From: a virus
Lineage: Duplodnaviria > Caudoviricetes
Direction: 5' to 3' (one strand)
DNA length: 38,935 nt
IMG/VR virus record: IMGVR_UViG_3300027820_000555
Location: 1-38,935 of that record
Shown here in pieces: positions 8,095-37,898 of this stretch. A model generated the notes under the pieces. That model did not search any database, had not been told where the DNA came from, and saw only the letters and a program-made list of their open reading frames with translations. Both the position numbers and the translations under genes were made by a program. Numbering within the stretch: position 1 is the first letter of the stretch; each line of letters opens with the position of its first letter.

Positions 8095-8892
8095 TTAAAC
8101 AGCTGCCGGGATTGGGTTTGCGTGTACAGGGAGCCGAACTTCACCAGCGATCAAGACGGGTAAGGCTAATTGGATAACACTGCCTTGCGATGCGTGAAGC
8201 CGTGGAAAGCAGGTCACATAGCCACCATTGAAGTTGATGACGTGTGAAATATGGGTCCACCCGTCAGCCGGGCTCAACAGTGTCGCAGCATTTTGCTCGA
8301 CCCCATCCTTTGCAAGATAGTTCCCTTTTTGCATCTCACCCTGGCCAGAGATGATGCGCAGCCAAAATGCGAAGCTTGCCATGCCAGTGAAGCCTAACCT
8401 TGGCTGGTGTTTGCAAAGGAGATAGTGATTTCCATTTGCACTCGTTCCGTCTGTACCGGTGCCCATCGTCCACTCAGCAATGAAAAATTCGGCCCCATAG
8501 CGTTCATTGCCGGGACGCATCTTGTTCATCAGCGCTTCAGTGGTTGCGTTTAATGCTGTGCCGGTCCCGCCGAATGTGCTGGAGTTGGTATGGTAACGCC
8601 CAGCCTCTATGCCTACTGTTGAGCCGTTATAGGGAGCAAAGTCTGCCGCCCGTGGGTCAAAAAGACCGTTAAGTAATATCGAAGACTTATCCTGCGCATC
8701 ATCAACGAAGCGGCCATCATCAGGCAATAAATTGGGGCCAGCAAGACCACCACCCGCTTGCGCGATAAACGTATCAACCTCCGCTTTTTTCGCTGCAACC
8801 TCTGCATTGATGTCGTCAATCTTTTCAGAGACTGTTGTGGTTAAGTCCGTTGCAGCGACCGTCAAGCCAGCAATATCGCTCTCAATAGTCAT
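8095..8892 (-). CDS. Short tail fibre / receptor-binding protein
   Basis: N-terminal coiled coil followed by a Gly/aromatic-rich beta domain; fibre locus. Confidence 0.65.
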   Translation of the reverse strand: MTIESDIAGLTVAATDLTTTVSEKIDDINAEVAAKKAEVDTFIAQAGGGLAGPNLLPDDGRFVDDAQDKSSILLNGLFDPRAADFAPYNGSTVGIEAGRYHTNSSTFGGTGTALNATTEALMNKMRPGNERYGAEFFIAEWTMGTGTDGTSANGNHYLLCKHQPRLGFTGMASFAFWLRIISGQGEMQKGNYLAKDGVEQNAATLLSPADGWTHISHVINFNGGYVTCFPRLHASQGSVIQLALPVLIAGEVRLPVHANPIPAAV

Positions 8893-9431
8893 TGAGCCGT
8901 CTCCTTGATTTTTAGAATTTCGAGTTGATTTTTCAGAGAAAGATGCAAGGCGGTTATCGCCGCAGTCGCATTGGCTGCAAGCGGTCCTGCAATGAGCGGT
9001 GAAATAATCGGCCCAGCTGCTTCAACACTAATGCTATCGAAAGGAACATCGCTGACTTCAAAATCAACGGTGAACGCAAGCCCTGCACTATGCGTGCGGG
9101 TGGTTATGATGTTGACAGGATGGCTGTAGATGCCAAACAGCACGCCATCTTCGTCATAAACCCCGAATTCAGAAAAATTATATTGTGGGATCTCCGGGTC
9201 TAAAGGTGACAGCGCAATGGTCATCCGAAGAATGTTGGGCAGGATACGCTCATAGGCCGCAATGGGCACGCGTTCTTTTTGCTGGCTAAGCGCTTCCTCT
9301 GAACCATCAGGTGCATATCGGCCTGCGCCTATGCCAATTTCGCACAGCGTGAGGTTCAGGCCATTATCCTGAGCGGAGAATAAAGCCGTCGATCCGACAC
9401 TCGTTCTGAGAAATTGCAGCTTCTCACTCAT
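8889..9431 (-). CDS. Tail-collar fibre N-terminal domain protein (P2 gpH N-terminus / DUF3751-like)
   Basis: EIGIGAG...SEFGVYDEDGVLFG motif; follows gpI. Confidence 0.75.
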   Translation of the reverse strand: MSEKLQFLRTSVGSTALFSAQDNGLNLTLCEIGIGAGRYAPDGSEEALSQQKERVPIAAYERILPNILRMTIALSPLDPEIPQYNFSEFGVYDEDGVLFGIYSHPVNIITTRTHSAGLAFTVDFEVSDVPFDSISVEAAGPIISPLIAGPLAANATAAITALHLSLKNQLEILKIKETAQ

Positions 9432-20400: not shown

Positions 20401-20958
20401 TTATAAAAAAAGTTTATTATAGTCGTCAAAGGCCTGTTCTATCCGCTTTTCCACATACTTAGGCTGGTGCCGATAGGTGCGTGCGATGCGACCCACGGTG
20501 AAGTCGTAAATGGCAAAGTCCGAGGCCATAGCGCGCGCCTCGCTGTGATCCCACCATTGATGGTATTGGGTGATGAGCTGCTGCTGCCTCTCGGTGAAAT
20601 CCAGCAGGGCGCGGGCAGACGGTATGCGCAGATAAGATGGCGTTTTGATATCTACATCACGGGCAACGAAATACCAGCCCATATAGATTTCATCGGCGGC
20701 GGCCAGCAGCTTTTCTTCAAGCCATCCCTTCTTGCGGGCAGAGACACGCCCGCTGGGCGTCTTCCTTTGATCCCTAACAGTGCCCCATGTCGATGGGTCT
20801 TTCTCGTTATACATACGGTGACGGTCCTCATGGCGGGCAATCAGTTCGTCACGTATGATGGCATTAACGCGGGCACGCTCTCGCGCCTGGCTTTGCAACA
20901 CGATGTTGATACGGTCCTGGGATTGGGTGGCTTCATGCTGCATGGTCATCTCCATCAA
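20401..20958 (-). CDS. Late-gene regulator (Q-like antiterminator/activator)
   Basis: Last early gene, followed by a promoter-terminator pair; C-terminal HTH-like segment. Confidence 0.55.
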   Translation of the reverse strand: MMEMTMQHEATQSQDRINIVLQSQARERARVNAIIRDELIARHEDRHRMYNEKDPSTWGTVRDQRKTPSGRVSARKKGWLEEKLLAAADEIYMGWYFVARDVDIKTPSYLRIPSARALLDFTERQQQLITQYHQWWDHSEARAMASDFAIYDFTVGRIARTYRHQPKYVEKRIEQAFDDYNKLFL

Positions 20959-23329: not shown

Positions 23330-23481
23330 GGGGCAACCTCCATAAACACTTCAAGGGCGCGCTTGGCTGCAAGACCGTCTTCCAGCTTTAATGTCTGTTG
23401 AGCCTTAAGCGACGCCTGCACAAATTCATCCCACTGTTCGGCTTTCAAGTCTTCACTTTGGACGGCTGTATCGTTGCTCAT
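23326..23481 (-). CDS. Hypothetical 51-aa protein
   Basis: Translated by hand, MSNDTAVQSEDLKAEQWDEFVQ...; AAGGA RBS; ATGA overlap with dnaB. Confidence 0.65.
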   Translation of the reverse strand: MSNDTAVQSEDLKAEQWDEFVQASLKAQQTLKLEDGLAAKRALEVFMEVAP

Positions 23482-23586
23482 AGCTTTATCCTTCTTAAGA
23501 CTGGGCCCACGGGCGTTGCCGGGGCATTATGGGATTGTGGGGGGATTTGGCTTTTGCCAGCGGTGGGGAAAAGAAAGAATATCATC

Positions 23587-23805
23587 TCAACCCCTTTCCA
23601 AACCATAGACCGATGCAGCCCGTTGAATCAGCGTGTCGGCTTCTGCAATGGCATTGAGTTCAAAGTCGGTCAGGGGCTGCTCATCGTCGCTGATGCGGGC
23701 CAAATACCTCTTGGCCTCAGCCACAAGCGTGCGTGCCTCGGCGCTTTTGAAGATTTCATTGAAACAGGTGCATGTGGATGCACGGGGAGTGTCGTCTGCC
23801 AGCAT
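23587..23805 (-). CDS. Hypothetical 72-aa protein controlled by the C4-like RNA
   Basis: GGAG RBS overlapping the antisense target CCAACGG; the frame is also open upstream to 24093/24105 (Ash-like). Confidence 0.6.
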   Translation of the reverse strand: MLADDTPRASTCTCFNEIFKSAEARTLVAEAKRYLARISDDEQPLTDFELNAIAEADTLIQRAASVYGLERG

Positions 23806-23864
23806 ATGGGCATCTCCGTTGGCTAAGTTGTTAAACCCAACCACTGGAGGTTCTACACTCCTGG

Positions 23865-23946
23865 TGGCCGGACCGATACACGGGTAGAACACCACCGGAT
23901 GCTCCCAACGGTAAGCATTCCGGCGGAACCATGACCGGCCCGACCA
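23865..23946 (-). ncRNA. C4/CI-type antisense RNA no. 1
   Basis: Closing stem TGGTCGGGCCGGT/ATCGGTCCGGCCA; seeds CCGTTGG and GTTCTAC have complements upstream (24000-24027) and downstream (23816-23856). Confidence 0.75.
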
Positions 23947-24058
23947 TAAGGAAAGCTGAAACGCCCAATAAAAAACGCGCTTTAAGAGGCGCGCGGACGC
24001 CGTTGGAACATCACGGCGGTGTTCTACTCCCGCCGCAGTGATTTTGCACTGCTGGTCC

Positions 24059-24087
24059 ACCATGCGTCGATTTTGGGCGTATGTCAA
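24059..24087 (-). promoter_or_regulatory. Promoter for C4-like module 1
   Basis: TTGACA-N17-CATGGT on the minus strand. Confidence 0.6.
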
Positions 24088-24154
24088 CATCATGCGGCAC
24101 TCCATGCTTTGAAGCGCGCGGCACAGTTTATGGGATAAATTGTTTCATAATTAA

Positions 24155-24233: not shown

Positions 24234-24524
24234 ATGATAGTGGTTGAAAAAACAGAAGAATTTCAAAAATGGCACCTGGGCCTTAAAGACAAAACAAGCA
24301 AGACGCGGATAACCGCGCGCCTGGACCGTGTTGAACAAGGAAACCTGGGCGATTTTAAGAACCTTAAAGATGGCCTTTACGAACTTCGGTTTACCTTTGG
24401 TGGCGGTATCAGGGTTTATTACACCTGGCGCGGCGATGAAATCGTCTTGCTGCTGGCCGGAGGAAACAAGTCGGACCAAGAAGCCGACATTGCTCGTGCA
24501 AAAGAAATGATCTCGGAACTCTAG
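24234..24524 (+). CDS. Type II toxin, RelE/ParE superfamily (addiction module killer, HI1419-like)
   Basis: GNLGDFK.L.DGLYELR..FGGGIRVY...LLLAGGNKS.Q..DI..A. Confidence 0.93.
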   Translation: MIVVEKTEEFQKWHLGLKDKTSKTRITARLDRVEQGNLGDFKNLKDGLYELRFTFGGGIRVYYTWRGDEIVLLLAGGNKSDQEADIARAKEMISEL

Positions 24525-24533
24525 GAGCGTATC

Positions 24534-24875
24534 ATGAGTAAACTTAAAACGACTAAATGGGATGCCGCAGACAGTATTGAGGATTTCGAGGATGCCTATC
24601 TGTACCTTGAAGCCACTCTTGAAGACACGCACGGCGACCGCGCTGCCATCATGAAGGCGCTTGGCAATATTGCGCGCTCCAAAGGCATGGCCGAGGTTGC
24701 GGAAAAAACCGGCCTTAGACGCGAAACGCTGTATCGCATGCTTTCCGAAGAGGGCAATCCGACCATTGATAACTTTATCAAGGTTTTGGCCGCCTTCGGC
24801 ATTGAAATGCGCTTTGCGCCCTCCGTTAGGACACGCCAGCGCCTCGACTTGAGCGGACAGGCTGCGGTGGCTTAA
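24534..24875 (+). CDS. Antitoxin (addiction module antidote, HI1420-like HTH)
   Basis: WDAAD...ALGNIARSKGMAEVAEKTGLRRETLYRMLSEEGNPT. Confidence 0.93.
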   Translation: MSKLKTTKWDAADSIEDFEDAYLYLEATLEDTHGDRAAIMKALGNIARSKGMAEVAEKTGLRRETLYRMLSEEGNPTIDNFIKVLAAFGIEMRFAPSVRTRQRLDLSGQAAVA

Positions 24876-24878
24876 ACC

Positions 24879-25157
24879 ATGGAAGCTTCTGCTGAATCCA
24901 TTCTTGCGGCTGTACGAAGCGGCAAAATGGAAACCTTCCCGCAATCCATCGTTGACGACATGATTAACGGCGTCCACCCGATCCGCAGCTTTCGCGAGTA
25001 CCGGGGGCTTACGGCCGATCAGCTTGGCAACGCGGTTGGCATATCGGGCGCCTATGTGCGTCAAATTGAGACCGGCAAGCGCGAAGGAAAGGCGCAAGTG
25101 ATTAAAGCCATCTCTGACGCGCTCAACGTTGATATGGAGCTTTTGATTGAAGATTAA
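24879..25157 (+). CDS. XRE-family HTH protein, third gene of the TA cassette
   Basis: HPIRSFREYRGLTADQLGNAVGISGAYVRQIETGKREG; starts 3 nt after the antidote stop. Confidence 0.85.
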   Translation: MEASAESILAAVRSGKMETFPQSIVDDMINGVHPIRSFREYRGLTADQLGNAVGISGAYVRQIETGKREGKAQVIKAISDALNVDMELLIED

Positions 25158-25336
25158 GATCGTTCCAGGGCGCGACATTGACAGCCCACCACCGGATGAC
25201 GCCATGCTGGAAAACATCAAGAAGGCCCAGCGGGGCGTCATACCAAAGCCCAAGCCACGACCATCATGATGATGACGATATATACCGCGACACAATGTCG
25301 GGGTATATACCGAACGAGATATCGAGGCAGTCGTCA

Positions 25337-25951
25337 TCATGCGGCGGCCTCTTTTGCTTTAAACTTTCCAACCTGATTGCCCCATGCATCCCAACCGGGC
25401 CAGCGCTGGCGCGCGAATAACTCGACATAAGGGCCGTTCAACAATTGCTCTATGCGGTCATAGACGCAATCGGGCTTACGGCTGTGTTCGCGGCGGGGCT
25501 CAAAGATAGGCTGGCGCACGCTGGCGCTTTGACGCTTTGGCTTGCCACGGGTGGCCAATAGGCACGCTTCGGTGTTGGACCGGGTCCAATAGCCCATGCC
25601 GCAGAACAATGAGCTCTCATCGACAAACAGGCGGTAATTGTCGCCCTTCATCCAATTAAAGCCGCAAGTCTTATATGTAAAACCCCAGGCATCAATCACG
25701 CGCATTGCGTCTGGCAACGTCGGCCAGGTCATCCACAGGAACAAAGCACAATCATCCGCCGCCAATTCGCTTACAGGCAAGGCGCAGATATCATCAATGG
25801 TCATGGTGCTGTAATGTGATTCAGCACTCCGATCCTGGCCCTTTTTGGACCAGGTCTTGAACGACCATGCGGGATCGGCATAGACGACCTGATAACCCCG
25901 TTTCCGAAGCCCAGCGAAAGGATGGTTGCCTGTTAAAACTGAGCTATCCAT
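25337..25951 (-). CDS. MT-A70 family N6-adenine methyltransferase
   Basis: VVYADPAW, HYSTM, ALFLW, WGFTYKT, REHSRKP and ELFAR; start chosen from the RBS. Confidence 0.93.
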   Translation of the reverse strand: MDSSVLTGNHPFAGLRKRGYQVVYADPAWSFKTWSKKGQDRSAESHYSTMTIDDICALPVSELAADDCALFLWMTWPTLPDAMRVIDAWGFTYKTCGFNWMKGDNYRLFVDESSLFCGMGYWTRSNTEACLLATRGKPKRQSASVRQPIFEPRREHSRKPDCVYDRIEQLLNGPYVELFARQRWPGWDAWGNQVGKFKAKEAAA

Positions 25952-27208: not shown

Positions 27209-27537
27209 CACCGATTCCTCGTGTTCTTTTTCAGCCAATAGTCAAATCTTGACATTGCGGTGGTCTTGGTCCGCACGCCGTCATTGTTCCAGTTGTCGCG
27301 CAGCAGACGCCATTCCATTAGGAAACCTTGGCGGATAAAGCCACAGGACCAGCGAATGTCTTGGAAGAGGTTTTTGAATAAATCCCACACGGCGAGAAAT
27401 GATATAATCAGTGCCATCGCCAGCGGGCTTACCAACAGGATGCCGAAGCCTGGCGCACCGGACAGGACCAAGGCCACGCGACGGCGATATAAACGCCGCC
27501 GGGGCGATGGGTCGCTTATCCGGTGCCCGCGTTCCAT
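27208..27537 (-). CDS. Hypothetical membrane protein
   Basis: Hydrophobic segment; TAATG coupling with gapR. Confidence 0.55.
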   Translation of the reverse strand: MERGHRISDPSPRRRLYRRRVALVLSGAPGFGILLVSPLAMALIISFLAVWDLFKNLFQDIRWSCGFIRQGFLMEWRLLRDNWNNDGVRTKTTAMSRFDYWLKKNTRNR

Positions 27538-27809
27538 TATGCGGCTTCTTCTTCGCTGGCGCTAACTTCGCCCTCGATGGCGCGCGCATAGAGATCAAGC
27601 AGATATTCTTGCTCTTCACGGTCATTCCGGTCCAGCTTGCGCAAGCGAATGATCTGGCGCATGATTTTAGGGTCAAAGCCGGACATTTTGGCTTCTTTGA
27701 ACACATCGCTAATATCTTCCTGCAATGCCTTCTTTTCTTCTTCCAACCGTTCAATGCGCTCAATAAAGCTGCCCAGAATGTGGCCAGCGATGCCGCCTAC
27801 CGTTGCCAT
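27537..27809 (-). CDS. gapR: GapR / DUF2312 (UPF0335) nucleoid-associated protein
   Basis: FIERIERLEEEKKAL..DI.DVFKEAK..GFDPKIMRQIIRLRK. Confidence 0.92.
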   Translation of the reverse strand: MATVGGIAGHILGSFIERIERLEEEKKALQEDISDVFKEAKMSGFDPKIMRQIIRLRKLDRNDREEQEYLLDLYARAIEGEVSASEEEAA

Positions 27810-27886
27810 AGGGCTATCCTTTCCGTTTTGATTTAATGATTGTGACCTTGCGATAGGCCGGATTGTCGTGGGTGATTACCATCCCC

Positions 27887-28366
27887 TCAGCCCTCCCGCT
27901 CGAGAACGGCGACCAATTGAGCCTTGATATTGGCAACGACGCTTAGGACGTCATCACACTCTTTAAGCATATTATGGTGGCGGACTTCCTTGGCTGAGAT
28001 ATTGCCGTCTGAAAGCGAACTCAGCAGGCGATCAAGCACCTCTCCGCTTTCCTTGGCCAAGCGCCCGGTCTCTTTCATCGTGGGGGCCTGGGCGTCACCT
28101 TCGGGCAGCTTCACAAGCGTATATCCCGCAATGCTTGCCAGCTTTTCCGTGACAAGTGGGTTGCAGGCCAGACCTTCAAGCGCGGGAATATCGGAAATCC
28201 GAAAAAACTTATTTGCGTGTTGAGGGTTGGTGCTGCTGCACATGTAATTAATATTTGGCTGCGCGCACCCAAGTAGCTTTGCGGCATTTTCCTGCCCACC
28301 GCATTGTTCCACTAAATTCTGGCTTGCCAGCTTCAATTCAAATTTTGCAAAGCGTAACGACTGCAT
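27887..28366 (-). CDS. CII-like phage regulatory protein
   Basis: HTH-like N-terminus, LASIAGYTLVKLP and LAKESGEV...LSDGNISAKE pattern; position downstream of PR. Confidence 0.65.
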   Translation of the reverse strand: MQSLRFAKFELKLASQNLVEQCGGQENAAKLLGCAQPNINYMCSSTNPQHANKFFRISDIPALEGLACNPLVTEKLASIAGYTLVKLPEGDAQAPTMKETGRLAKESGEVLDRLLSSLSDGNISAKEVRHHNMLKECDDVLSVVANIKAQLVAVLEREG

Positions 28367-28693
28367 CTCGAAAACCTTATAAATTTCCCGAAGTTATAAC
28401 GTGCATCCCAGCGATGCCGCCCTTAGCTTGGGTGCTATGACCACACAGGACCTTGATGAATTGATAAATAGAACCCACCAGCATCCCCACATGTGCACAC
28501 GCACGCGTAAAGGGGTGGCCGGGGTGCCGGGGCGACATGCTTGTGTGGACGTCGCCCCGGCAAGCGCTGGATCGATCAATGGGGGAAAAGATCGTAAGCG
28601 CATCCAGCGCTGGAAAAAGAACGGCGGGGGCAATAAAAGCTTTGGGAAAACCCCCGCCTATGCGGGGATCAGGTCCATCCCGCAATTCGATAG

Positions 28694-28780
28694 TGGTGCC
28701 TGCGGCCGGGATCGAACCAGCAAGGGCCAAAGCCCGTCGGGGCTTAAACCCGATGCGTTTACCATTTTCACCACGCAGGC
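28694..28780 (-). tRNA. tRNA-Leu, anticodon TAA
   Basis: 87 nt; acceptor GCCTGCG/CGCAGGC, anticodon arm TCGGG-TTTAAGC-CCCGA, long variable arm, GGTTCGA, encoded ACCA. Confidence 0.95.
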
Positions 28781-28789
28781 GATTAAATG

Positions 28790-28876
28790 TGGTCCCCCTG
28801 GTTGGACTCGAACCAACACAGCAATAAAGCCGCCGGAACCTAAACCCGGTGCGTCTACCATTTCCGCCACAGAGGG
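28790..28876 (-). tRNA. tRNA-Leu, anticodon TAG
   Basis: 87 nt; acceptor CCCTCTG/CAGGGGG, anticodon arm CCGGG-TTTAGGT-TCCGG, long variable arm, encoded ACCA. Confidence 0.95.
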
Positions 28877-28885
28877 TAACTTGAT

Positions 28886-28960
28886 TGGTTGCAGCGGCGG
28901 GATTCGAACCCGCGACCTCTTGGTTATGAGCCAAGCGAGCTACCACTGCTCTACGCTGCT
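28886..28960 (-). tRNA. tRNA with CAT anticodon, initiator (fMet)-like
   Basis: 75 nt; A1:A72 mismatch, G2:C71, C3:G70, A11:T24, arm CTTGG-CTCATAA-CCAAG, encoded ACCA. Confidence 0.9.
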
Positions 28961-29065
28961 TCAAGAAAAAAGCGGCCACACGCTTGCCACATGGCAGATA
29001 ACCACCATGGGCCAGCGCGTGACCAAGTTTCGGGTGAAAACCCGAGGAAGATACGAAAAACCCAC

Positions 29066-29284
29066 TCATGCGAGCGCCCGCCCTAAAAACGCAACAAGGA
29101 AAAGGCAGGGCCCGCCTACGCCAAACAACAATACAAAGCATTTACGCAACGCAGCCCGAAACGCAGGGCTGTCATTCAAATCCCGCCTGACATCCTTGGC
29201 CGCCAGCCAGATCATGAAAGCGATCAAGGCAAACATCACAATGCCCCCAAGGCTGTGCAAAGATATAGGTCCACTGGCGTCCAT
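29066..29284 (-). CDS. Small membrane protein, first ORF after PR
   Basis: GGAG RBS; two hydrophobic segments; no HTH. Confidence 0.6.
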   Translation of the reverse strand: MDASGPISLHSLGGIVMFALIAFMIWLAAKDVRRDLNDSPAFRAALRKCFVLLFGVGGPCLFLVAFLGRALA

Positions 29285-29338
29285 TTGGTGTCTCCGGGCC
29301 GCCTAACCGAAAAAGCAATACGCGGAACAAGAAAGAGC

Positions 29339-29416
29339 TATCGATTGGCTACTTTGAAAAAGACTGTTGGATATGCATTATAGCGTTTCGCTAAGTCTTG
29401 CAATAGCGAATTGCTT
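29339..29416 (-). promoter_or_regulatory. PR-like promoter with repressor operators
   Basis: TAGCG-TTT-CGCTA (29381-29393), TAGCG-AAT-TGCTT (29404-29416), weaker copy at 29339-29351; TTGCAA and TATAAT on the minus strand (15-nt spacer, so the assignment is imperfect). Confidence 0.7.
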
Positions 29417-29510
29417 TCACAGTGTGTTTTTTTTTGCGATAAGGATTAAGCGCCAATCGCGATTTGAGGGGAAACCCGAGGGGAAATCATTGGCTGTGGG
29501 TCGGGATAGA

Positions 29511-29927
29511 ATGACTGATTTAAAAAAGACAATAGGTGCTAATATAAGGCGCATCCGGGAAGAGCGCGGCATGAGCCAAAGGCTGCTTTCCGAGAAAATC
29601 CATAAAGAGCAAGGTACTTTAAGCGGTTACGAAAGTGGACGGCGGGAGCCGGATGCTGCAACGATCGATAAGATTTGCAACATCCTAAACACCACGCCCA
29701 ATGAACTATACGGCCATAGCAGCTTTACCCCGGTTTCTGAGGAAGCTCTTGAGATCATTTTAAAACGCGCATTGCCGCTAATGTTGAGCCGGAGCTCTCC
29801 GCCTGAGACGATTGCAAAATCGGTAGCGCGGACATACAACACTCTTGCTGAACTGCGGGAAGACCCACGCGATCTTCTTGAAGAGCTCGATAATATTCCG
29901 TCAGCAAAATCAAATCGAGCCGGTTAA
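29511..29927 (+). CDS. Prophage repressor (CI-like XRE HTH, no S24 peptidase domain)
   Basis: IGANIRRIREERGMSQ..LS..I......LSGYESGRREP; lies between two divergent operator-bearing promoters. Confidence 0.85.
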   Translation: MTDLKKTIGANIRRIREERGMSQRLLSEKIHKEQGTLSGYESGRREPDAATIDKICNILNTTPNELYGHSSFTPVSEEALEIILKRALPLMLSRSSPPETIAKSVARTYNTLAELREDPRDLLEELDNIPSAKSNRAG

Positions 29928-30773: not shown

Positions 30774-30822
30774 AAGCGTATCGCTTTTAATAGCTTGACA
30801 TAATATAGCGCAACGCTAAGAT
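30774..30822 (+). promoter_or_regulatory. PL-like promoter with two operators
   Basis: TTGACA (30795-30800)-N16-TAAGAT; AAGCG-TAT-CGCTT (30774-30786) and TAGCG-CAA-CGCTA (30806-30818). Confidence 0.8.
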
Positions 30823-30855: not shown

Positions 30856-31425
30856 ATGCAGCCGTTACCAATGCCGAAGAGTTGGGATCCCAACCTATCG
30901 CATAGCTGGGAAAAGTTTGACGCTTATATGCGTGAAGCAGCCGAGAAGGCCAAGGACCAGCATCAAAGCCCCCTGGGTTATTTCAAGAATGCTAAGCGCG
31001 CAATGGACGTGCAGAACACGCATTTGGCATATCGCCATTTGCAAACCGCTGTACGCCTTAGCACTGACCCGCGGTGGTTGGTGTTCCAGGACAAGGTCAA
31101 TGACGACTTCCATGGCTTCGATGAAATGACCATCCAGGAATATAAGCGCCAGCTTGATGCGGAATATCCATTGATTATTCCGGCTGATATCGCCGGGATG
31201 CATGACGTGATTGAAGCAGGCCTATCCCAATATCAAGGCGCGGGCATTATCGCCTTGGCACTTGAGGCCCAAGAGGAGCGCTTCAAAGTCTTCATCAAAG
31301 ACCAGGTTGTCGCAGAGGTTGCCAGCGTCTTTTTATCCGACTTGGAGTCCATGGTTGCTCAAATATGCAAGCAGATCGACGGCGATGCTGCAGGCCGCAA
31401 CACGGCGGAGGGACCAGCAACATGA
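30856..31425 (+). CDS. Hypothetical protein, first gene of the PL operon
   Basis: ATG at 30856 after GGA; open to 31425. Confidence 0.7.
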   Translation: MQPLPMPKSWDPNLSHSWEKFDAYMREAAEKAKDQHQSPLGYFKNAKRAMDVQNTHLAYRHLQTAVRLSTDPRWLVFQDKVNDDFHGFDEMTIQEYKRQLDAEYPLIIPADIAGMHDVIEAGLSQYQGAGIIALALEAQEERFKVFIKDQVVAEVASVFLSDLESMVAQICKQIDGDAAGRNTAEGPAT

Positions 31426-31437
31426 AGGCGATTAGAT

Positions 31438-31674
31438 TTATTGCACTTGGCGCGGCTTGGTATTGTCTACGGTTGGGTCTAGGCCGCGGGCTTTCATCAT
31501 ATGGAAAAGACCGTATCCAAGGGTTTTGGCTGCTTCCCATGTTATCAAAAGATGCATTTGTGTCATCTCAACCTGGCCTGAAAGACCAACTGGGAAGACC
31601 ACCTCTACATGCTCTTTATCGTCCCCAGATGAGACGGAAATGACTTGGTCGATAATGAATAAAGGTTCTTTCAC
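31438..31674 (-). CDS. Counter-oriented 78-aa hypothetical protein (moron)
   Basis: AGGAG 6 nt before GTG at 31674; upstream TTGCAC-N17-TAATGT; lower GC than its neighbours. Confidence 0.65.
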   Translation of the reverse strand: MKEPLFIIDQVISVSSGDDKEHVEVVFPVGLSGQVEMTQMHLLITWEAAKTLGYGLFHMMKARGLDPTVDNTKPRQVQ

Positions 31675-31764
31675 TGCTTTCTCCTGGTTGCGTTCTAATT
31701 GTATTTGCAACCCGACATTAGGTCGCAACCAGGGGAAGTGCAATGCATATAACGGAGCTACCGC

Positions 31765-32220
31765 ATGAACGCATTGAATGATTTCGCTGATATCGTGCGC
31801 CCCACCGCCCCGGTGCTGATTACTGTCAACCTGAACAAGACTGACATCCAGATCATTCACCGGGCACTGACTGACAAGATTACCGCGGCCAGCGATGAAC
31901 TTCTTTCCAAGGGCAGTGATACCCGCGAAAGCGATCAAATGCTCATCAGTCGCAAGATTAAGGCTCACCGCGCCGCCCGCATGAGGTTTCATGCCCTTGT
32001 CCCCGAACTGATGGAGGATGAGCGCCCGTTGGAAGACATCCTTCCCAGTGACAGTGATGAATCAGAAATCATCGCCTGCGCGCGCGAGGTCAAAGACTTC
32101 ATGGGGGAATGCATCGAGGGGCAGTTGCGTTTCGTTGATGGCAACAAGTTCCGCTCATGCTTCGCAGACCTGTCCGACGCCCTGTCCAGGCTACCTAAAG
32201 GGAAGAGGCGCAACAAGTGA
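31765..32220 (+). CDS. Hypothetical protein
   Basis: GGAG RBS; overlaps the downstream gene. Confidence 0.7.
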   Translation: MNALNDFADIVRPTAPVLITVNLNKTDIQIIHRALTDKITAASDELLSKGSDTRESDQMLISRKIKAHRAARMRFHALVPELMEDERPLEDILPSDSDESEIIACAREVKDFMGECIEGQLRFVDGNKFRSCFADLSDALSRLPKGKRRNK

Positions 32221-32546
32221 ACCCGCTGCACATGATACAACTGCCAGGGTTTGGCGGACGGCACCCGTGCGAGACGGAGAAGGTCGAGCTGGGTGGCATC
32301 AAATACCATTTCACTTTGGTCTATGACCGTGGACGCGTCGTGGGGGTTCATGTGGATGGCCTAAAGGCTGGCACGGACCAGCAGCGCCACATCTATGAAA
32401 CCACATGCATCATTAACGCCACATTGGCGGGCGGGACCACCGTCCAAGACCTCTATGGCGAAAGCCATGTGGACGGCGATGAACACACCATCATTTCCCA
32501 TGTGCTTGCACGTGCGTGCGAAGAAGAACAAAGGAGCGCCGCATAA
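32217..32546 (+). CDS. Small protein resembling the TSCPD (class II RNR C-terminal) domain
   Basis: YHFTL...G..V.VHVDG.KAGT......T..IIN..L..G pattern, recalled similarity only. Confidence 0.45.
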   Translation: MNPLHMIQLPGFGGRHPCETEKVELGGIKYHFTLVYDRGRVVGVHVDGLKAGTDQQRHIYETTCIINATLAGGTTVQDLYGESHVDGDEHTIISHVLARACEEEQRSAA

Positions 32547-32983
32547 TGTCAGGCAGCGTGAACAAAGTCATATTGGTGGGCCGCCTGGGCGCAGATCCTG
32601 AAGTTTCAGCCCTCCCGCACGATGGTGGACGCATGGCGCGCTTTTCCATTGCCACCAGCGAGAAGTGGAAAACCCGCAACGGTGAGAAGAAAGAGCGCAC
32701 CGAATGGCACCGCGTCGTCACCTATAACGATGGCCTGGTGCGCATTGCCGAAAACTATTTGCGCAAGGGTGCCAAGGTCTACATCGAAGGCGAACTGCGC
32801 ACCCGTAAATGGACCGACAACAGCGGGACTGAGCGCTTCACGACCGAAGTGATTATCCCAAATTTCAAGGGCGTCCTGACCATGCTGGACGGCCAGCGCA
32901 ACGGACCACCCCCAGTCAGTGGGCCAGACGATTACCAATACAACCCGCCCAGCGGCGACCTGGACGACGACGTCCCCTTTTAA
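32546..32983 (+). CDS. ssb: Single-stranded DNA-binding protein
   Basis: SVNKVILVGRLGADPE, TEWHRVV, KGAKVYIEGELRTRKW and C-terminal LDDDVPF. Confidence 0.97.
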   Translation: MSGSVNKVILVGRLGADPEVSALPHDGGRMARFSIATSEKWKTRNGEKKERTEWHRVVTYNDGLVRIAENYLRKGAKVYIEGELRTRKWTDNSGTERFTTEVIIPNFKGVLTMLDGQRNGPPPVSGPDDYQYNPPSGDLDDDVPF

Positions 32984-32995
32984 GGAACCAAGACG

Positions 32996-33652
32996 ATGAC
33001 AGCGGACCCAATAGACATTCACGTAGGAAGCCGCGTGCGCCTTCGCCGGACCCTTATGGGTATGAGCCAGGAAAAACTTGGCCACGCCCTGGGCCTGACA
33101 TTTCAGCAGGTGCAGAAATACGAAAAGGGCGCGAACCGCATTGGCGCTTCGAACCTGTTTAAGATATCGAAAGCCCTGAAGGTGCCGGTGTCTTTCTTCT
33201 TTGACGGGATTGAGAATGGTGAACACGCGGTTGAATACCTACCGGATAAAGACACCGTGGGTAGATTCCACGCGCTATTGGCACGGGTAAACACACCTGT
33301 AACAGATAACTTCTTCGAAGGCGTGCGCATAGAAGCCGCCCACCAAAAAGAGCGTTGGGGAGATACCCACGATTATAACAAGCGCGACGCCGATTGGTCT
33401 GCCCTTGTCACCTACCTGCACGGAAAGGCGGTTAAGGCTTGCTATGATGGCGATAACGACAAACTCCTGCATCATATCATCACCACATCAGCAGCCTTGA
33501 TGCACTGGCACACCTCTCTGAATTGGAAAATTGAGGCCGTCATTCCTGAACTCCTGAACATTGGCCTCAGCTACGACCAGATCAAAGGCGAATACCCCCA
33601 ATTCGCCGATCGCATAGAAGCCTTCCGCAAGCATGTGGAGGCGGTAGGATGA
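32996..33652 (+). CDS. PraR/PhrR-type XRE regulator fused to an all-alpha (MazG-like) domain
   Basis: PIDIHVGSRVRLRR..GMSQEKLG..LGLTFQQVQKYEKGANR; C-terminal EAAHQKERWG...W..LV.YL.GKA...LHHIIT.SAAL.HW. Confidence 0.8.
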   Translation: MTADPIDIHVGSRVRLRRTLMGMSQEKLGHALGLTFQQVQKYEKGANRIGASNLFKISKALKVPVSFFFDGIENGEHAVEYLPDKDTVGRFHALLARVNTPVTDNFFEGVRIEAAHQKERWGDTHDYNKRDADWSALVTYLHGKAVKACYDGDNDKLLHHIITTSAALMHWHTSLNWKIEAVIPELLNIGLSYDQIKGEYPQFADRIEAFRKHVEAVG

Positions 33653-33993
33653 GCAAAGTCACACCCGACATAGAAAGGGTAGCGCGGGCAATTCACGCTT
33701 CCACACGCTCAGAGCAATCCTTTGACCAGCTTCCATACAGGGCAAGTTACACAAACGACGATGTCAGGCAGGGCAAGGGTCAGAACAAATCCGCCACAAA
33801 AGACGATTATTACGATGCCGCCAGGGTCGCGATAAAGGCGATGGAAAATGTATCGACCCAAGCACTAACCGCGGTCCCCGGTGCATACGGCGTCGAAGCC
33901 CTTTATGGAACTGTCGAAGGCAGCGCCATGGCCTGGGACTGGCTGCAAGGCCACCGGGCAATGATTAAAGCAGCCTTGGGGGAAGACGAGTGA
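33649..33993 (+). CDS. Hypothetical protein
   Basis: ATGA coupling; IERVARAI...AMIKAALG pattern common in phage early genes. Confidence 0.7.
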   Translation: MSKVTPDIERVARAIHASTRSEQSFDQLPYRASYTNDDVRQGKGQNKSATKDDYYDAARVAIKAMENVSTQALTAVPGAYGVEALYGTVEGSAMAWDWLQGHRAMIKAALGEDE

Positions 33994-34319
33994 AAACCGA
34001 TATCGTCTTAACCCTTGGCCAGCACGAATTCACCCTGCGCCCTACATTCGAGCGCATGAATGCCATCGAAGAAGAACTCGGCTCTGCGTTTAGCATCGTG
34101 GACCGCGCAACACAGGGCCAGGTTACAGTGAATGACGTTGTGACCGTGCTGTGGCACTGCATTCAGCAATGGCACGTTCGATCGGAGGCCTTTGTGAAGT
34201 ACAAAGATGCCTTTGGAGAGCTGATTATGGAACACGGTGTTGCCACCGCCACCCCAGCCTTCCGCGCCCTGTTAACAGCGGTGTTAGCAGGCCCCAACGC
34301 AGGGGAGGCACCCCAATGA
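33990..34319 (+). CDS. GTA-gp10-like (siphoviral) tail assembly chaperone homolog
   Basis: LTLG..EFTLRPTF..MNAIEEELG......DR...G.VTV.DVV.VLW...G......LL..VL pattern. Confidence 0.6.
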   Translation: MKTDIVLTLGQHEFTLRPTFERMNAIEEELGSAFSIVDRATQGQVTVNDVVTVLWHCIQQWHVRSEAFVKYKDAFGELIMEHGVATATPAFRALLTAVLAGPNAGEAPQ

Positions 34320-34435
34320 TGTGCAACATTGAAAACCACCTCTTCGCATATATCACCTGCTTCATTGTCGGCATGTTGGTGGCCTTCGCCATGGCTGAAT
34401 ATGGCGTCTATCGCCGCTTTAAAGATAAGGAATAA
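34316..34435 (+). CDS. 39-aa single-TM peptide
   Basis: GGAGG RBS; ATGA overlap; hydrophobic core. Confidence 0.6.
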   Translation: MMCNIENHLFAYITCFIVGMLVAFAMAEYGVYRRFKDKE

Positions 34436-34438
34436 CCG

Positions 34439-34750
34439 ATGACCACCGATAACGTCATGGACATTGGTGTACGGTTCAAATCGGAACCCGATGACGATCA
34501 AATATTTGAGGTCGTTCGGGATCGTGAATGCCACCATCAATATCGAATTGATATCGAATCAGACACTGTATATTGCGCTAAGTGTCCAAAGACTTTCAAT
34601 CCGATGGCAGTGCTTCTTGAGTTTGCTAGACAGGAAGAAAGATGGCGGTTGGCGCGCGAATCTTATCAGGATGAAATGACGCGCCTTCGGAAGAGAAAGA
34701 AGACCAAATGCGACCATTGCGGTCGTATGACATCGATTTCGAAAAGATAA
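34439..34750 (+). CDS. Zinc-finger-like hypothetical protein
   Basis: CHH, CAKC and KCDHCG motifs; AAGGA RBS. Confidence 0.75.
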   Translation: MTTDNVMDIGVRFKSEPDDDQIFEVVRDRECHHQYRIDIESDTVYCAKCPKTFNPMAVLLEFARQEERWRLARESYQDEMTRLRKRKKTKCDHCGRMTSISKR

Positions 34751-34768
34751 CCCATGCACGCCGCTGTC

Positions 34769-34797
34769 TTGACATATGAACGGAATGCGACCATGGT
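34769..34797 (+). promoter_or_regulatory. Promoter of the C4/antirepressor module
   Basis: TTGACA-N17-CATGGT; the spacer contains GAAC-N7-GACC (34778-34792). Confidence 0.65.
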
Positions 34798-34889
34798 TGG
34801 AGTTGGAGCTCACAACTCTAACAAGCGGATGGTCGCGCCGTTATTGCGGCTATTTTCATGCCTGGATTCTGTCCAGGCATCCCGTCTTT

Positions 34890-34965
34890 TGGCGGGAGTC
34901 CGGGTAATACAAGACCCTTCGGGGGAATATCCGGGCCTGTCTTGTTCAGGTGTGAACTCCCGCCA
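34890..34965 (+). ncRNA. C4/CI-type antisense RNA no. 2
   Basis: Closing stem TGGCGGGAGT/ACTCCCGCCA with an internal CCC-TTCG-GGG hairpin; seeds CTTGTT and TGTGA have complements upstream (34810-34825) and downstream (34977-35016). Confidence 0.82.
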
Positions 34966-35026
34966 CCAGGCGGCTCTCACAGGCTCTCTGAGTGGCGCAT
35001 ATAAACGCCAAACAAGAGGGCTTGTT

Positions 35027-35557
35027 ATGACCGCTAAATCAAAAGACCTTGTCTTCCAAGGCACTGAAATCAAAACCATAGAACGCAATGGAGAGCGTTG
35101 GTTGACGGGCTTGCAAATTGCAAGCGCGTTAGAATTTGCCAACCCACGTGCCGACATCGCAAACATCTACCGTCGCCACAAAGGCGAATTCACCAGAGAT
35201 ATGACGGACCTGATTAAGCAGGGGCGCACCAGGGTGCGGGCATTCAGCCCGAGGGGGGCTTGGCTCATTGCCATGTTTGCCCGCACCCCGCGTGCTGCTG
35301 CGTTCCGCCATTGGGTGCTGGACGTACTGGAAGGCAAAGAGGGCCCCAGCGCCCAGGCATTAGAGCGCGCCTTTGAACACGGGTACAACACGTGCAAGGC
35401 GCATCAAATGATACGGGACGCCCGGTCGATGATTGACAGCATAGACTTAGGCCCAAGCCCGATGACGCGGGAAGACGTAGGCAAAGCCTTCGACGCCTCC
35501 CTCCTTCTCCTAACCGCCGACAGCATATCCCTAAAACCGAAAGGCCAAATCCAATGA
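35027..35557 (+). CDS. Bro-N domain antirepressor-like protein
   Basis: LVFQG..I..IERNGERWLT...IASAL.F......I..IYRRH..EF...MT...RAFSPRGAWLIAMFARTPRAAAFRHWVLD. Confidence 0.88.
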   Translation: MTAKSKDLVFQGTEIKTIERNGERWLTGLQIASALEFANPRADIANIYRRHKGEFTRDMTDLIKQGRTRVRAFSPRGAWLIAMFARTPRAAAFRHWVLDVLEGKEGPSAQALERAFEHGYNTCKAHQMIRDARSMIDSIDLGPSPMTREDVGKAFDASLLLLTADSISLKPKGQIQ

Positions 35558-35898
35558 GTGAGACGACACGAATTGACCACCCTAAGAACGAGTGGAGATG
35601 GTACGGCGGCACCGATGAGGAACGCCTTGATTATGGGCCCATGCTCACAAGAGAAGACGCGATAGAAGAGGTCTTTGAACAGGAGTATTGGGGGTGCTTA
35701 GATGAAGAGATGTTCCGCATCTGTGAATGTCTGCCGCCAGAGCCAGACGAAGACTTTGAAGATGATTGCCTTGAAGACGGCGACTATATATTTCCCGATC
35801 ACCGCAACGTAGAACACTTCACCTTTGCAGAAGCCAGGAAATTAGTCGAGGCCATCAGGGCAAAGCGCAACCCAGCGGAGGGCCAAGTCGATGGCTGA
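35554..35898 (+). CDS. Acidic hypothetical protein
   Basis: ATGA coupling; WYGGTDEE...GP..TREDAI. Confidence 0.7.
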   Translation: MSETTRIDHPKNEWRWYGGTDEERLDYGPMLTREDAIEEVFEQEYWGCLDEEMFRICECLPPEPDEDFEDDCLEDGDYIFPDHRNVEHFTFAEARKLVEAIRAKRNPAEGQVDG

Positions 35899-36967
35899 GA
35901 AATCACACATAGAATGGACTGACGCGACCTGGAATCCGATCACCGGATGCAGCGTTGTAAAGCGTGGCTGCAAGAACTGCTATGCCATGAAGCTGGCCGG
36001 TGGCCGCCTCAAAAACATCCCCTCACGTAAAGGGCTGACCCAGCCGTCCAAAAACGGCCCCGTATGGACCGGCGAAGTGCGCTTCAATGAACAATGGCTA
36101 GACCAGCCCTTAAGATGGAAGAAGCCCCGCCGCATCTTCGTCTGCGCCCACGGCGACCTCTTCCATGAGAACGTCCCCGATGAATGGATAGACCAAGTGT
36201 TTGCGGTGATGTCCAGTTGTCCGCAGCACACCTTCCAAATCCTCACCAAGAGACCGCGGCGCATGTACAAATACATGATGTCTCAAGGAAGGGAATTCTT
36301 AATCGGCCATGAGATGGGCAAAATCTACTATGAGCGCTTCGATGGCAACCGCGTGCCAAAATCACTCGAAGAAGCCAGGAAGAACCCAGACCAATTAGGC
36401 TGGCCCCTATCCAACGTCTGGCTTGGCGTCTCTGTCGAAGACCAAGAGACCGCAAACGAACGCATCCCCTATCTGCTGGACACCCCAGCGGCGGTGCGAT
36501 GGACCAGCGCCGAACCATTGCTTGATGAGTTGGACCTGGAAAACCTGGACCTAAACGCTTTCATGGCAGCAGACGCGGTACCGCGGGCTTACACTGATTA
36601 TCATAGGATTCATTTGGACGCCCTGCGTGGCAATATCAAGCCAGTCGATCATGAGTCACTTTCGGGGCTGGATTGGGTAGTGGTCGGGGGCGAAAGCGGC
36701 CCAGGCTGGCGGCCTTTCAATCCAGATTGGGCCCGCAAGTTGAGAGACCAATGCGCCAGCGCAGGCGTTGCGTTCTTCATGAAACAAATGGGCGGCAAGG
36801 CTGATATCCCCGAAGACCTGCAAGTCCGCGACTGGCCTTTCGCCGCTCAATATTGGGGCGACTACAGCGATGAGGTCACGGAAGAACATATCAAAGCAAT
36901 CCGCGAAGCCACCGGCAACGTCCACCCAGACGACCCCCGCGTCACTTACATAAGCAAAGGATGGTGA
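35891..36967 (+). CDS. DUF5131 (phage Gp37/Gp68) radical-SAM-like protein
   Basis: IEWTDATWNPITGC.....GCKNCYA, QILTKRP, NVWLGVSVE, SAEPLL, DWVVVGGESG and FFMKQ. Confidence 0.93.
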   Translation: MAEKSHIEWTDATWNPITGCSVVKRGCKNCYAMKLAGGRLKNIPSRKGLTQPSKNGPVWTGEVRFNEQWLDQPLRWKKPRRIFVCAHGDLFHENVPDEWIDQVFAVMSSCPQHTFQILTKRPRRMYKYMMSQGREFLIGHEMGKIYYERFDGNRVPKSLEEARKNPDQLGWPLSNVWLGVSVEDQETANERIPYLLDTPAAVRWTSAEPLLDELDLENLDLNAFMAADAVPRAYTDYHRIHLDALRGNIKPVDHESLSGLDWVVVGGESGPGWRPFNPDWARKLRDQCASAGVAFFMKQMGGKADIPEDLQVRDWPFAAQYWGDYSDEVTEEHIKAIREATGNVHPDDPRVTYISKGW

Positions 36968-37578
36968 GCATGAACATCCGTTCAATAACATTCAAACCCG
37001 AAATGATTGAAGCCCTGCTGGATGGCTGCAAAACTCAGACACGCCGCATTATTAAGCCGGGCAAGAGGCCCTTCGAGGTCGGCGACTTCTTATGGGTCAG
37101 AGAGCGGTTGGAGAAATCCGATTATGAGCAATACCTGCTTGATAAATTGGGATGGAGTGACCCACGCGAATGGAAGTGGTCACGCGATTACCTTCTAGCG
37201 ATGCACATGCCCAAGAACCACAGCCGTCTCACCCTGAAAGTCACAGACGTGAGACAGCAACCCGTCCAAGACATCACGGAGACCGACGCCCAGGCAGAGG
37301 GCTTTGCTGATATCGCGGCATTTCAAGCCTATTGGGATGGCATCTACAAAGCCGACCCCCAATATCAATGGGCCTGCAACCCAGCGGTCACGGCTTACAC
37401 CTTCGATGTGGACCACAGAAACATTCATAAAGTGGAACTGGACGCCTTCATTGACGAAGCCCTCGAAAACTTCAGGCCAAAGATGCCACGCTTTATGACG
37501 ATACAAGGCGGCGAGGTTTTGAAGCTTTCACCGGAATCTATCGAGATCGTCCGCAAAGAGTTTGGAGTTGAAGCATGA
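36961..37578 (+). CDS. ASCH/PUA-like domain protein
   Basis: ITF...MIEALLDG.KTQTRR, GD.LWVRE, HMPK..SRLTL.V..VR and DAQAEG; start may be 36970. Confidence 0.8.
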   Translation: MVSMNIRSITFKPEMIEALLDGCKTQTRRIIKPGKRPFEVGDFLWVRERLEKSDYEQYLLDKLGWSDPREWKWSRDYLLAMHMPKNHSRLTLKVTDVRQQPVQDITETDAQAEGFADIAAFQAYWDGIYKADPQYQWACNPAVTAYTFDVDHRNIHKVELDAFIDEALENFRPKMPRFMTIQGGEVLKLSPESIEIVRKEFGVEA

Positions 37579-37898
37579 ACAACATCATTAGTTTGGATAA
37601 CAGGCTTTCTCGCGCTCTGCTAAAAGGCAAGGGCGTAAACCTCAATGCCGATGATTTAAACATACTCGCTTCGATCGGGGTAATGGCGTGCATATCAGCG
37701 GCAAAAGAAAAACAGCTTAGGGAGGAGGCGCAATGCCGGATATCAAAGGCGGAATCTACCAGCGCGGGCAATACTGGCTCGACTATCTCCGAGACAAAGA
37801 CGGTGCCGCAAAATCCGATTGGCTCTATATCCACTGGTACGATCCAGAAAAACGAAGAGGCGCACGCGCATCAACGGGCACGACGGACCCTGCAATAG
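37575..37898 (+). CDS. Hypothetical protein overlapping the integrase 5' end (excisionase position)
   Basis: GGAG RBS, ATGA coupling, 166-nt out-of-frame overlap with the integrase. Confidence 0.5.
   Translation: MNNIISLDNRLSRALLKGKGVNLNADDLNILASIGVMACISAAKEKQLREEAQCRISKAESTSAGNTGSTISETKTVPQNPIGSISTGTIQKNEEAHAHQRARRTLQ

Follow-up and report, generated by a model that had tools for sequence, protein, structure and literature searches.

The 230-codon open reading frame that crosses three tRNA genes ahead of cII is read here as a stop-free bridge, one of a set joining both early operons of a temperate phage from stop to start, which likely keeps ribosomes on the nascent mRNA and so counters termination by Rho and by hairpins; a probability of roughly 0.6 is attached to this reading. 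The stretch analysed (hereafter the window) is a virus record of 38,935 nt from an alphaproteobacterial-type temperate phage. Logan contigs of the likely source run matched it in two long pieces with no differences or indels, other sequencing runs covered only short identical pieces of it, and no RNA sequencing run with the stretch was listed. Pfam and PHROG comparisons assigned a cI-like and a cII-like gene, a GapR-like gene, an MT-A70 methyltransferase, DnaB, an O-like initiator, a Bro-N antirepressor, and an integrase. No close relatives of this phage were found, the nearest cII proteins being 26-45% identical. Coordinates are collected in Table 1.

Table 1. Positions in the window of the genes, RNAs, and open frames discussed in the text.
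Feature	Position	Strand	Basis or remark
Last gene of the PR relay, DUF6456-like, sigma-region-4-like fold	20401-20958	-	ESM Atlas lead
Gap ORF, 35 codons	23478-23585	-	p0 0.25, not significant alone
P4 eta-type ORF; its start precedes an internal TTGACA, and it spans the isrK-like RNA (23970-24052)	23587-24093	-	p0 0.011
Bridge over the antisense TA cassette, 416 codons	24090-25340	-	ATGA at both ends; 0/5000 randomisations
Antisense cargo: toxin (phrog_3445), antidote (PF21716), HTH gene	24234-25157	+	PHROG/Pfam
GapR-like gene, alphaproteobacterial marker	27537-27809	-	PF10073, E 8e-31
cII-gapR gap ORF, 22 codons	27814-27882	-	p0 0.016
cII-like activator	27887-28366	-	phrog_101, E 5e-14
Bridge ORF, 230 codons, through three tRNAs and hairpins	28377-29069	-	ORF call
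GC-rich hairpin array, several stems followed by U-runs	28380-28693	-	Fold of -132.7 kcal/mol; inverted repeats
301-codon frame in exact antisense register to the bridge	28401-29306	+	ORF call
tRNA-Leu(TAA)	28694-28780	-	ARAGORN, RF00005
tRNA-Leu(TAG)	28790-28876	-	ARAGORN, RF00005
tRNA-Met(CAT), initiator-like	28886-28960	-	ARAGORN, RF00005
Hairpins 5' of the first tRNA, with a terminator-like stem at 28975-28995	28961-29066	-	Folding
First PR gene, 72 aa, hydrophobic, in cro position	29066-29284	-	GGAG before start
cI-like repressor	29514-29927	+	Pfam/PHROG
Two-step relay (31422-31643 and 31640-31768)	31422-31768	+	ATGA at three joints; p0 0.023
Small antisense gene under the moron relay	about 31438-31674	-	Gene call
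Antirepressor (Bro-N); its N-terminal extension, open for 91 codons, spans an internal TTGACA and the sRNA-Xcc1 RNA	34754-35557	+	p0 0.081
sRNA-Xcc1 RNA (RF02221)	34891-34972		Rfam, at gathering score

Early operons and bridging frames of the window

The PR operon is ordered as the 72-codon gene, the three tRNAs, the hairpins, and cII. No cro was recognisable at 29066-29513. A homology search with the 72-codon gene returned only itself, its codon score was low (-0.052), and its status as a gene is putative; small hydrophobic genes head PR both in the window and in L337 (1279-1854), with a tRNA-Met next in each. The operator-like palindrome TAGCG-N3-CGCTA occurs exactly at 29381-29393 and at 30806-30818, near matches being no more frequent than expected by chance, and the two exact copies are likely the PR and PL operators. 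When the bridging frames were counted, every junction from 29284 to 20401 fell within -8 to +10 nt and every junction from 30856 to 37898 within -8 to +12 nt. All seven early gaps named in an earlier note on this DNA were bridged (7/7), as was one of the four late gaps of the window. Two further observations concern the PL operon: a tail-family gene (phrog_2115) lies inside it at 33990-34319, and the ORF in excisionase position (37575-37898) overlaps the integrase start by 166 nt.

No N-like antiterminator had been recognised previously, and this held: no PHROG or Pfam match to an N-like or antitermination family was obtained among the early genes scanned, a search that a divergent N could escape, and the first PL gene had no named look-alike. 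N proteins diverge fast. The last gene of the PR relay, which gave no Pfam or PHROG match and was not similar by BLAST to the phrog_6836 gene of L045, probably encodes a late regulator, judging from its modelled fold. Q-like late antiterminators have been shown for an alphaproteobacterial GTA, according to the available part of the report (bioRxiv 10.1101/2024.11.20.624540).

The 230-codon frame was recovered as previously described. It starts with an ATG at 29069, within an ATGA (29066-29069) that also contains the TGA of the 72-codon gene, it crosses all three tRNA genes towards cII, and its TAA (28379-28377), said to form part of the signal preceding cII, does so, lying inside TTTATAAGG, 10 nt upstream of the cII ATG. 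The tRNAs, set apart by 9-nt spacers (28877-28885 and 28781-28789), pass bacterial tRNA criteria (cloverleaf, anticodon, encoded CCA; RF00005 scores of 48-69 bits), and the tRNA-Met carries an A1xA72 mismatch and A11-U24, which we take to be initiator hallmarks. The two Leu tRNAs read CUA and UUA, which make up 0.6% and 1.1% of the phage codons, respectively, and are two of the three codons avoided in the bridged antisense cargo described below.

Dinucleotide shuffling left the frame open in 0.2% of cases, a share that was 2.7% with the tRNAs kept in place and 0.4% with random register, and a coupled chain (at most two ORFs, or a fusion) leading from the upstream stop to cII arose in 1.6-2.9% of randomisations. 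Taken alone, the frame is thus modestly beyond chance (p of about 0.02-0.03) and is suggestive only. General stop-poverty of the region, a caveat raised earlier from the 301-codon ORF on the opposite strand, was rejected, as the other four frames carry 4, 12, 9, and 13 stops. The codon score of the 230-codon ORF was -0.066, against a real-gene mean of +0.077 (sd 0.043), no Pfam or PHROG match was obtained for it, and no homologue was found among 1378 candidates. The hairpins of the tRNA block, which might include a two-stem RNA of the put type, gave no Rfam match down to E=1. No Rfam RNA of the CI, C4, or isrK type was matched inside the ORF, and by the Pfam and PHROG comparisons it is not a Bro-network gene.

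The same design had been proposed for the TA cassette, the moron, two putative C4 RNAs, and short gaps. The frame over the TA cassette was confirmed with its 416 codons and both coupled ends, and the gap ORFs at 23478-23585 and 27814-27882 were likewise present as claimed. The moron is bridged, but by two ORFs and not by a single one. The ORFs at 34754-35557 and 23587-24093 are open and start ahead of a TTGACA that lies just past their ATG, as stated; the RNAs they cross, however, are sRNA-Xcc1 and an isrK-like RNA (E 0.007, below the Rfam cut-off), not Rfam C4.

The three cargo genes of the TA cassette lie in a common frame, and TTA, CTA, and TCA are absent from their roughly 300 codons, whereas these codons account for 3.0% in 48 window genes of similar GC3; with synonymous choice alone the chance of this absence is about 1e-4. 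GC-rich homologues of the TA genes are likewise nearly without the three codons (1 and 0 in L004; 0 and 0 in L005). The sequence GCCGCATGATG is repeated at both joints of the 416-codon bridge (25330-25350 and 24083-24100), a junction duplication, GTGATGGG, occurs in L045, and stop-start duplications also flank the TA cassettes in L058. These duplications suggest that antisense TA cassettes were inserted at ATGA joints. In the window, the GCCGCATGATG duplication suggests that the coupled ends arrived with the insertion, which leaves the open interior unexplained; coupled ends can, on the evidence of such junctions, be a by-product of insertion.

Antisense cargo and tRNA genes in other loci

A total of 156 loci was assembled from cII and GapR neighbourhoods, annotated phages, and 20 host-chromosome control stretches, and genes were called with our own caller, which recovered 67/70 and 57/59 annotated genes. 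Each antisense island flanked on either side by at least two same-strand genes was tested against a null model that combined synonymous resampling with spacer shuffling. Many cII matches were domesticated host genes, and these were used as background. Such cII-like genes are conserved and stand singly in the host without a prophage (L039, L040, L042, L043, L363, L366, L379-L382, L384, L387, and L388-L402), were matched in 27 of the 33 genomes of one order and in several alphaproteobacterial groups, and adjoin rnhA, a peroxiredoxin-like, or an argE-like gene (names assigned by eye), an apparent domestication.

The 156 loci yielded 84 antisense islands. With the window and 19 host controls set aside, 14 of 64 were bridged against 2.2 expected, and after removal of four doubtful islands with a low inner-gene score or a bridge that is possibly a real gene (L370, L376, L085, and the 496-nt gap of L410), 10 of 60 were bridged against 1.3 expected (P of about 1e-8), the set of 60 still containing host, late, and boundary islands. 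Among the host controls, 1/19 was bridged (0.14 expected), an insertion-sequence case. Nine of the ten bridged islands lie in prophage early operons (L044, L045, L057, L058, L369, L375, L377, L386, and Azospirillum phage Cd). Their cargo consists mostly of HicAB, RelE/HTH, or BrnT cassettes, with methyltransferase, primase, or initiator genes as neighbours, and the longest single bridging frame spans 519 codons (L377). In the Azospirillum brasilense Cd phage, the bridge has 147 codons (8546-8989 of its record) and spans the antisense gene gp14. In five of the seven multi-gene cassettes, the window included, all cargo genes share one frame. BiPBO1 gp40 has a like design, fell below the score cut-off, and was left out of the count. 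In L352, a 129-codon frame with a stop-start overlap at both ends crosses a small antisense HTH-like gene between cro and cII.

A separate set selected by the BrnT motif comprised 120 loci with 40 unique islands and 74 unique cassettes, and 4 of the 40 islands were strictly bridged (0.66 expected). The frame opposite BrnT was open at 5/7 sites defined as early by PHROG (2.3 expected) and at 1/18 late sites (2.2 expected; Fisher p=0.002, the early sites being more GC-rich at 0.63 vs 0.55). It was also open at both sites judged early by eye (2/2), in 3/13 other islands (2.7 expected), and at 4/34 non-island sites (4.2 expected). Since the late, other, and non-island counts match expectation, the null is well calibrated outside early operons. 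The sieB genes of lambda and P22, in N-dependent PL operons, show stops in all frames and no coupled start, these two being the only N-encoding controls. Unbridged antisense cases were found in L063, L049, and L140. The bridge peptides are mutually unrelated, save one weak match between two HicAB shadows; when diverged copies of other bridged cassettes were sought, all matches were either identical or short fragments, and one metagenome pattern search gave no match. Because the bridged L191 looks betaproteobacterial by eye, bridging is not tied to one host class.

In GC-rich genomes, in-register antisense shadow ORFs are open when TTA, CTA, and TCA are rare. The window, in contrast, has 51% GC and 3% of such codons, and randomisation with the codon usage of each locus does not reproduce the bridges. 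Selection on open frames across antisense cargo is well supported, and a chance shadow ORF was rejected both for the TA frame of the window and for antisense cargo generally; the shuffle test that had been proposed for these frames came out decisively for the TA frame (0/5000) and borderline for the tRNA frame (p of about 0.03).

It is for the tRNA-crossing frame that chance has to be weighed most seriously. Antisense bridges could be selected while this frame is a shadow ORF, structured tRNAs being poor Rho substrates that need no ribosome cover. We regard this as unlikely, and the evidence from other loci bears on it in both directions. Motif scans gave 107 tRNA-Met loci, many of them situated in clusters of head genes or at late promoters. 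With all contexts pooled, 8 of 30 testable loci had their phage tRNA-Met covered by a coupled ORF, against 6.0 expected; this absence of an excess fits chance, and coverage of a single tRNA-Met was dropped as general support. The tRNA frame used by the bridge is open anyway in 37/52 phage tRNA-Met genes, and translation would compete with tRNA folding. On the other side, 451 of the 700 nt crossed by the 230-codon ORF are spacer and hairpin and not tRNA, and all other early gaps of the same genome are bridged.

In five independent loci (L115, L241, L311, L337, and L373), a tRNA-Met separates cII, or the regulator that comes next, from cro or from the gene that opens PR; a cII profile search and inspection by eye added no others. 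In all five, a coupled ORF or chain crosses the tRNA-Met in the same frame as in the window, and its start sits on an upstream stop (-4 or -1) in 5/5 cases against 15/118 host gaps, which speaks against chance. The bridge of L115 fuses into the cII-like gene; in L373, two ORFs of 64 and 292 codons form a relay that passes an antisense gene, the tRNA, and hairpins and reaches the cII ATG (1062 nt); in L337, membrane genes take the place of cro, and the coupling partner of the bridge is an overlapping frame instead of the gene called upstream; and the bridges of L241 and L311 end 96 and 109 nt before cII, respectively. With conservative scoring the five loci combined gave p=0.037, or 0.009 with the window added; without L373 the value was 0.33, a loss of significance that favours chance. 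Gaps between cro and cII were bridged in 10 of 23 automatic calls against 4.4 expected, a count that includes one duplicate and some miscalled cro genes. Clear misses included L038, L378, L375, and L049, several gaps of 160-260 nt were without a bridge, and as just 10/23 were bridged, short gaps can stay uncovered. Overall, the extension of bridging to tRNA genes is probable, chiefly on the ground that all else in this genome is bridged, but it is not established.

Several tRNA loci were noted in passing. In L078, a degenerate tRNA-Lys (6735-6814) lies directly after gapR; the short ORF over it stops at the tRNA end, and no bridge to the next gene was found. In L255 (2441-2631), a tRNA-Met lies between two primase genes, and a 64-codon frame with coupling at either end runs across it. 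The tRNA-Met acceptor stems of L115 (8386-8461) and L241 (1325-1400) are frayed (GTCAGGG vs CCCTGCA) and the anticodon loop of the former is altered, so that these two tRNAs may be degenerate. Pseudomonas phage D3 was rejected as a cro-cII tRNA case, its tRNAs lying at the late boundary.

The opposite strand of the tRNA block is open as well. An open stretch as long as the 301-codon frame at 28401-29306 had p=0.005; the frame stops 60 nt short of an upstream in-frame start of cI, without coupling to that gene, which has a 48-codon open upstream extension (29367-29513, + strand). In L115, L241, and L311, too, a frame pointing to cI passes through cro without a stop, none of the three being significant by itself, and L337 and L373 have no such frame. 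The direction from the cII start to cI is that of a lambda PRE-type transcript, and as a post hoc lead the 301-codon frame may form a second bridge, for an establishment-type transcript to cI.

Mechanism and competing explanations

We infer that the frames are translated, that termination and not re-initiation is the target, and that N is absent. Ribosomes leaving the 72-codon gene would re-initiate at the overlapping ATG, trail the polymerase through the tRNAs and hairpins, halt at the cII ribosome-binding site, and re-initiate there. Rho would be denied a loading site and the terminator hairpins would stay unfolded, the tRNAs would fold and be excised after ribosome passage, and the bridge peptide would be waste. 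Rho action against untranslated and antisense RNA has been reviewed (PMC12360218, accessible portion). Bridging might further replace early antitermination of the lambda N type, cargo such as antisense TA cassettes and tRNAs would persist in early operons only if one operon-strand frame is open, and late operons under a Q- or NusG-like regulator would need no bridge. The replacement of antitermination by coupling had been put forward in the earlier note; it gains from the antisense-cargo frames, which exceed chance, are concentrated in early operons, and encode unrelated, junk-like peptides, and is weaker for the tRNA case (p of about 0.03; analogues 0.037).

The coupled ends might instead serve re-initiation only, weak or buried ribosome-binding sites downstream needing an arriving ribosome with termination uninvolved. 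That the end of a bridge and the following start are no more than about 14 nt apart, frequently as ATGA, would agree with this, as would the bare AAGG that precedes the cII start, and the orf45-anrP pair of Gifsy-1 operates by coupling according to the available text of PMC4825925. G-rich Shine-Dalgarno-like runs are nevertheless present at the junctions of L377, L386, and L375, a short upstream ORF would suffice without 300-500 open codons, and the contrast between early and late operons fits termination better, so coupling alone appears improbable as the full explanation. It is still less credible that ribosome passage protects the RNA, against RNase III at duplexes with the antisense cargo mRNA or against RNase E, or disturbs cargo expression during lytic growth: the cargo does consist mostly of antisense toxin-antitoxin cassettes, and noncontiguous operons work through overlapping transcripts (PMC11034616, as far as its accessible text goes), but the sense-strand tRNA blocks, the short gaps, and the unbridged late antisense cassettes would be left unexplained. 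Finally, active overlapping antisense genes are described for phage Fc02 (accessible part of PMC9936078), yet working overprinted proteins are a very remote prospect for ORFs with non-gene codon scores that are unrelated to one another and gave no homologue among 1378 candidates and no Pfam or PHROG match.

Relation to known systems and implications

The closest precedent for escort of the early transcript by ribosomes is eta (eta/kil) of the satellite phage P4 (Forti et al. 1999, as summarised in PMC10111431), which, in the part of that summary available, is coupled to the upstream gene and whose translation prevents termination across the CI RNA. The eta layout, in which a coupled ORF extends across both an internal promoter and the gene of a structured RNA, is shared by the window ORFs starting at 34754 and 24093, the former belonging, through its Bro-N domain, to a Bro-network gene, and the start of the 230-codon ORF is likewise coupled to the upstream stop (ATGA). 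By contrast, eta is described there as one regulated locus in a Bro-network gene, whereas the window frames encode nothing recognisable, cross tRNAs and antisense cassettes, and make both early operons continuous. In isrK-orf45-anrP of Gifsy-1, an RNA-rich leader ORF is needed, through coupling, for the downstream antirepressor, and the window has an isrK-like RNA; the available text of PMC4825925 describes a switch under sRNA control, which differs from a constitutive bridge spanning cargo or tRNAs.

Lambda N/nut and HK022 put would resemble the bridges in taking the early transcript past Rho sites, among them those of the cro-cII interval and of antisense morons, and differ in that RNA polymerase is modified; the leader peptides tnaC and speFL share with them the blocking of Rho loading by ribosomes and differ as short, ligand-sensing, conserved peptides, the bridges being long and unconserved (both comparisons drawn from the accessible portion of PMC12360218). 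Noncontiguous operons likewise have a transcript that spans an opposite-strand gene, and an open coupled frame on the operon strand is not mentioned in the available text (PMC11034616). The earlier claim of an undescribed system does not extend to the C4/isrK part, which is known from P4 eta as partially summarised in PMC10111431. No account of bridging frames as a genome-wide rule, or over tRNAs or antisense cargo, was found in the literature covered, in which subscription papers were mostly outside the search. The principle is thus already known from P4 eta and Gifsy-1 orf45, and the genome-wide rule and the crossing of tRNAs are undescribed in the literature found, within the accessible parts of these sources.

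A wider proposal is that in many proteobacterial temperate phages N is replaced by a ribosome relay that reads tRNAs, hairpins, and antisense TA cassettes as junk, the cro-cII interval being open on both strands so that a second frame escorts the CII-driven transcript to cI. We advance this tentatively, considering it possible with the odds somewhat against it. In practice, bridge ORFs would be unfit for protein annotation, and insertions into early operons, as in phage engineering or with reporters, may be polar without an open frame. If the bridging reading is true, some phage tRNA genes would be translated as mRNA before processing, and cargo insertion and codon evolution would follow a rule by which one operon-strand frame is kept stop-free. 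It would also explain the expression of long early operons in Rho-dependent hosts by lambdoid-type phages in which no N can be recognised.
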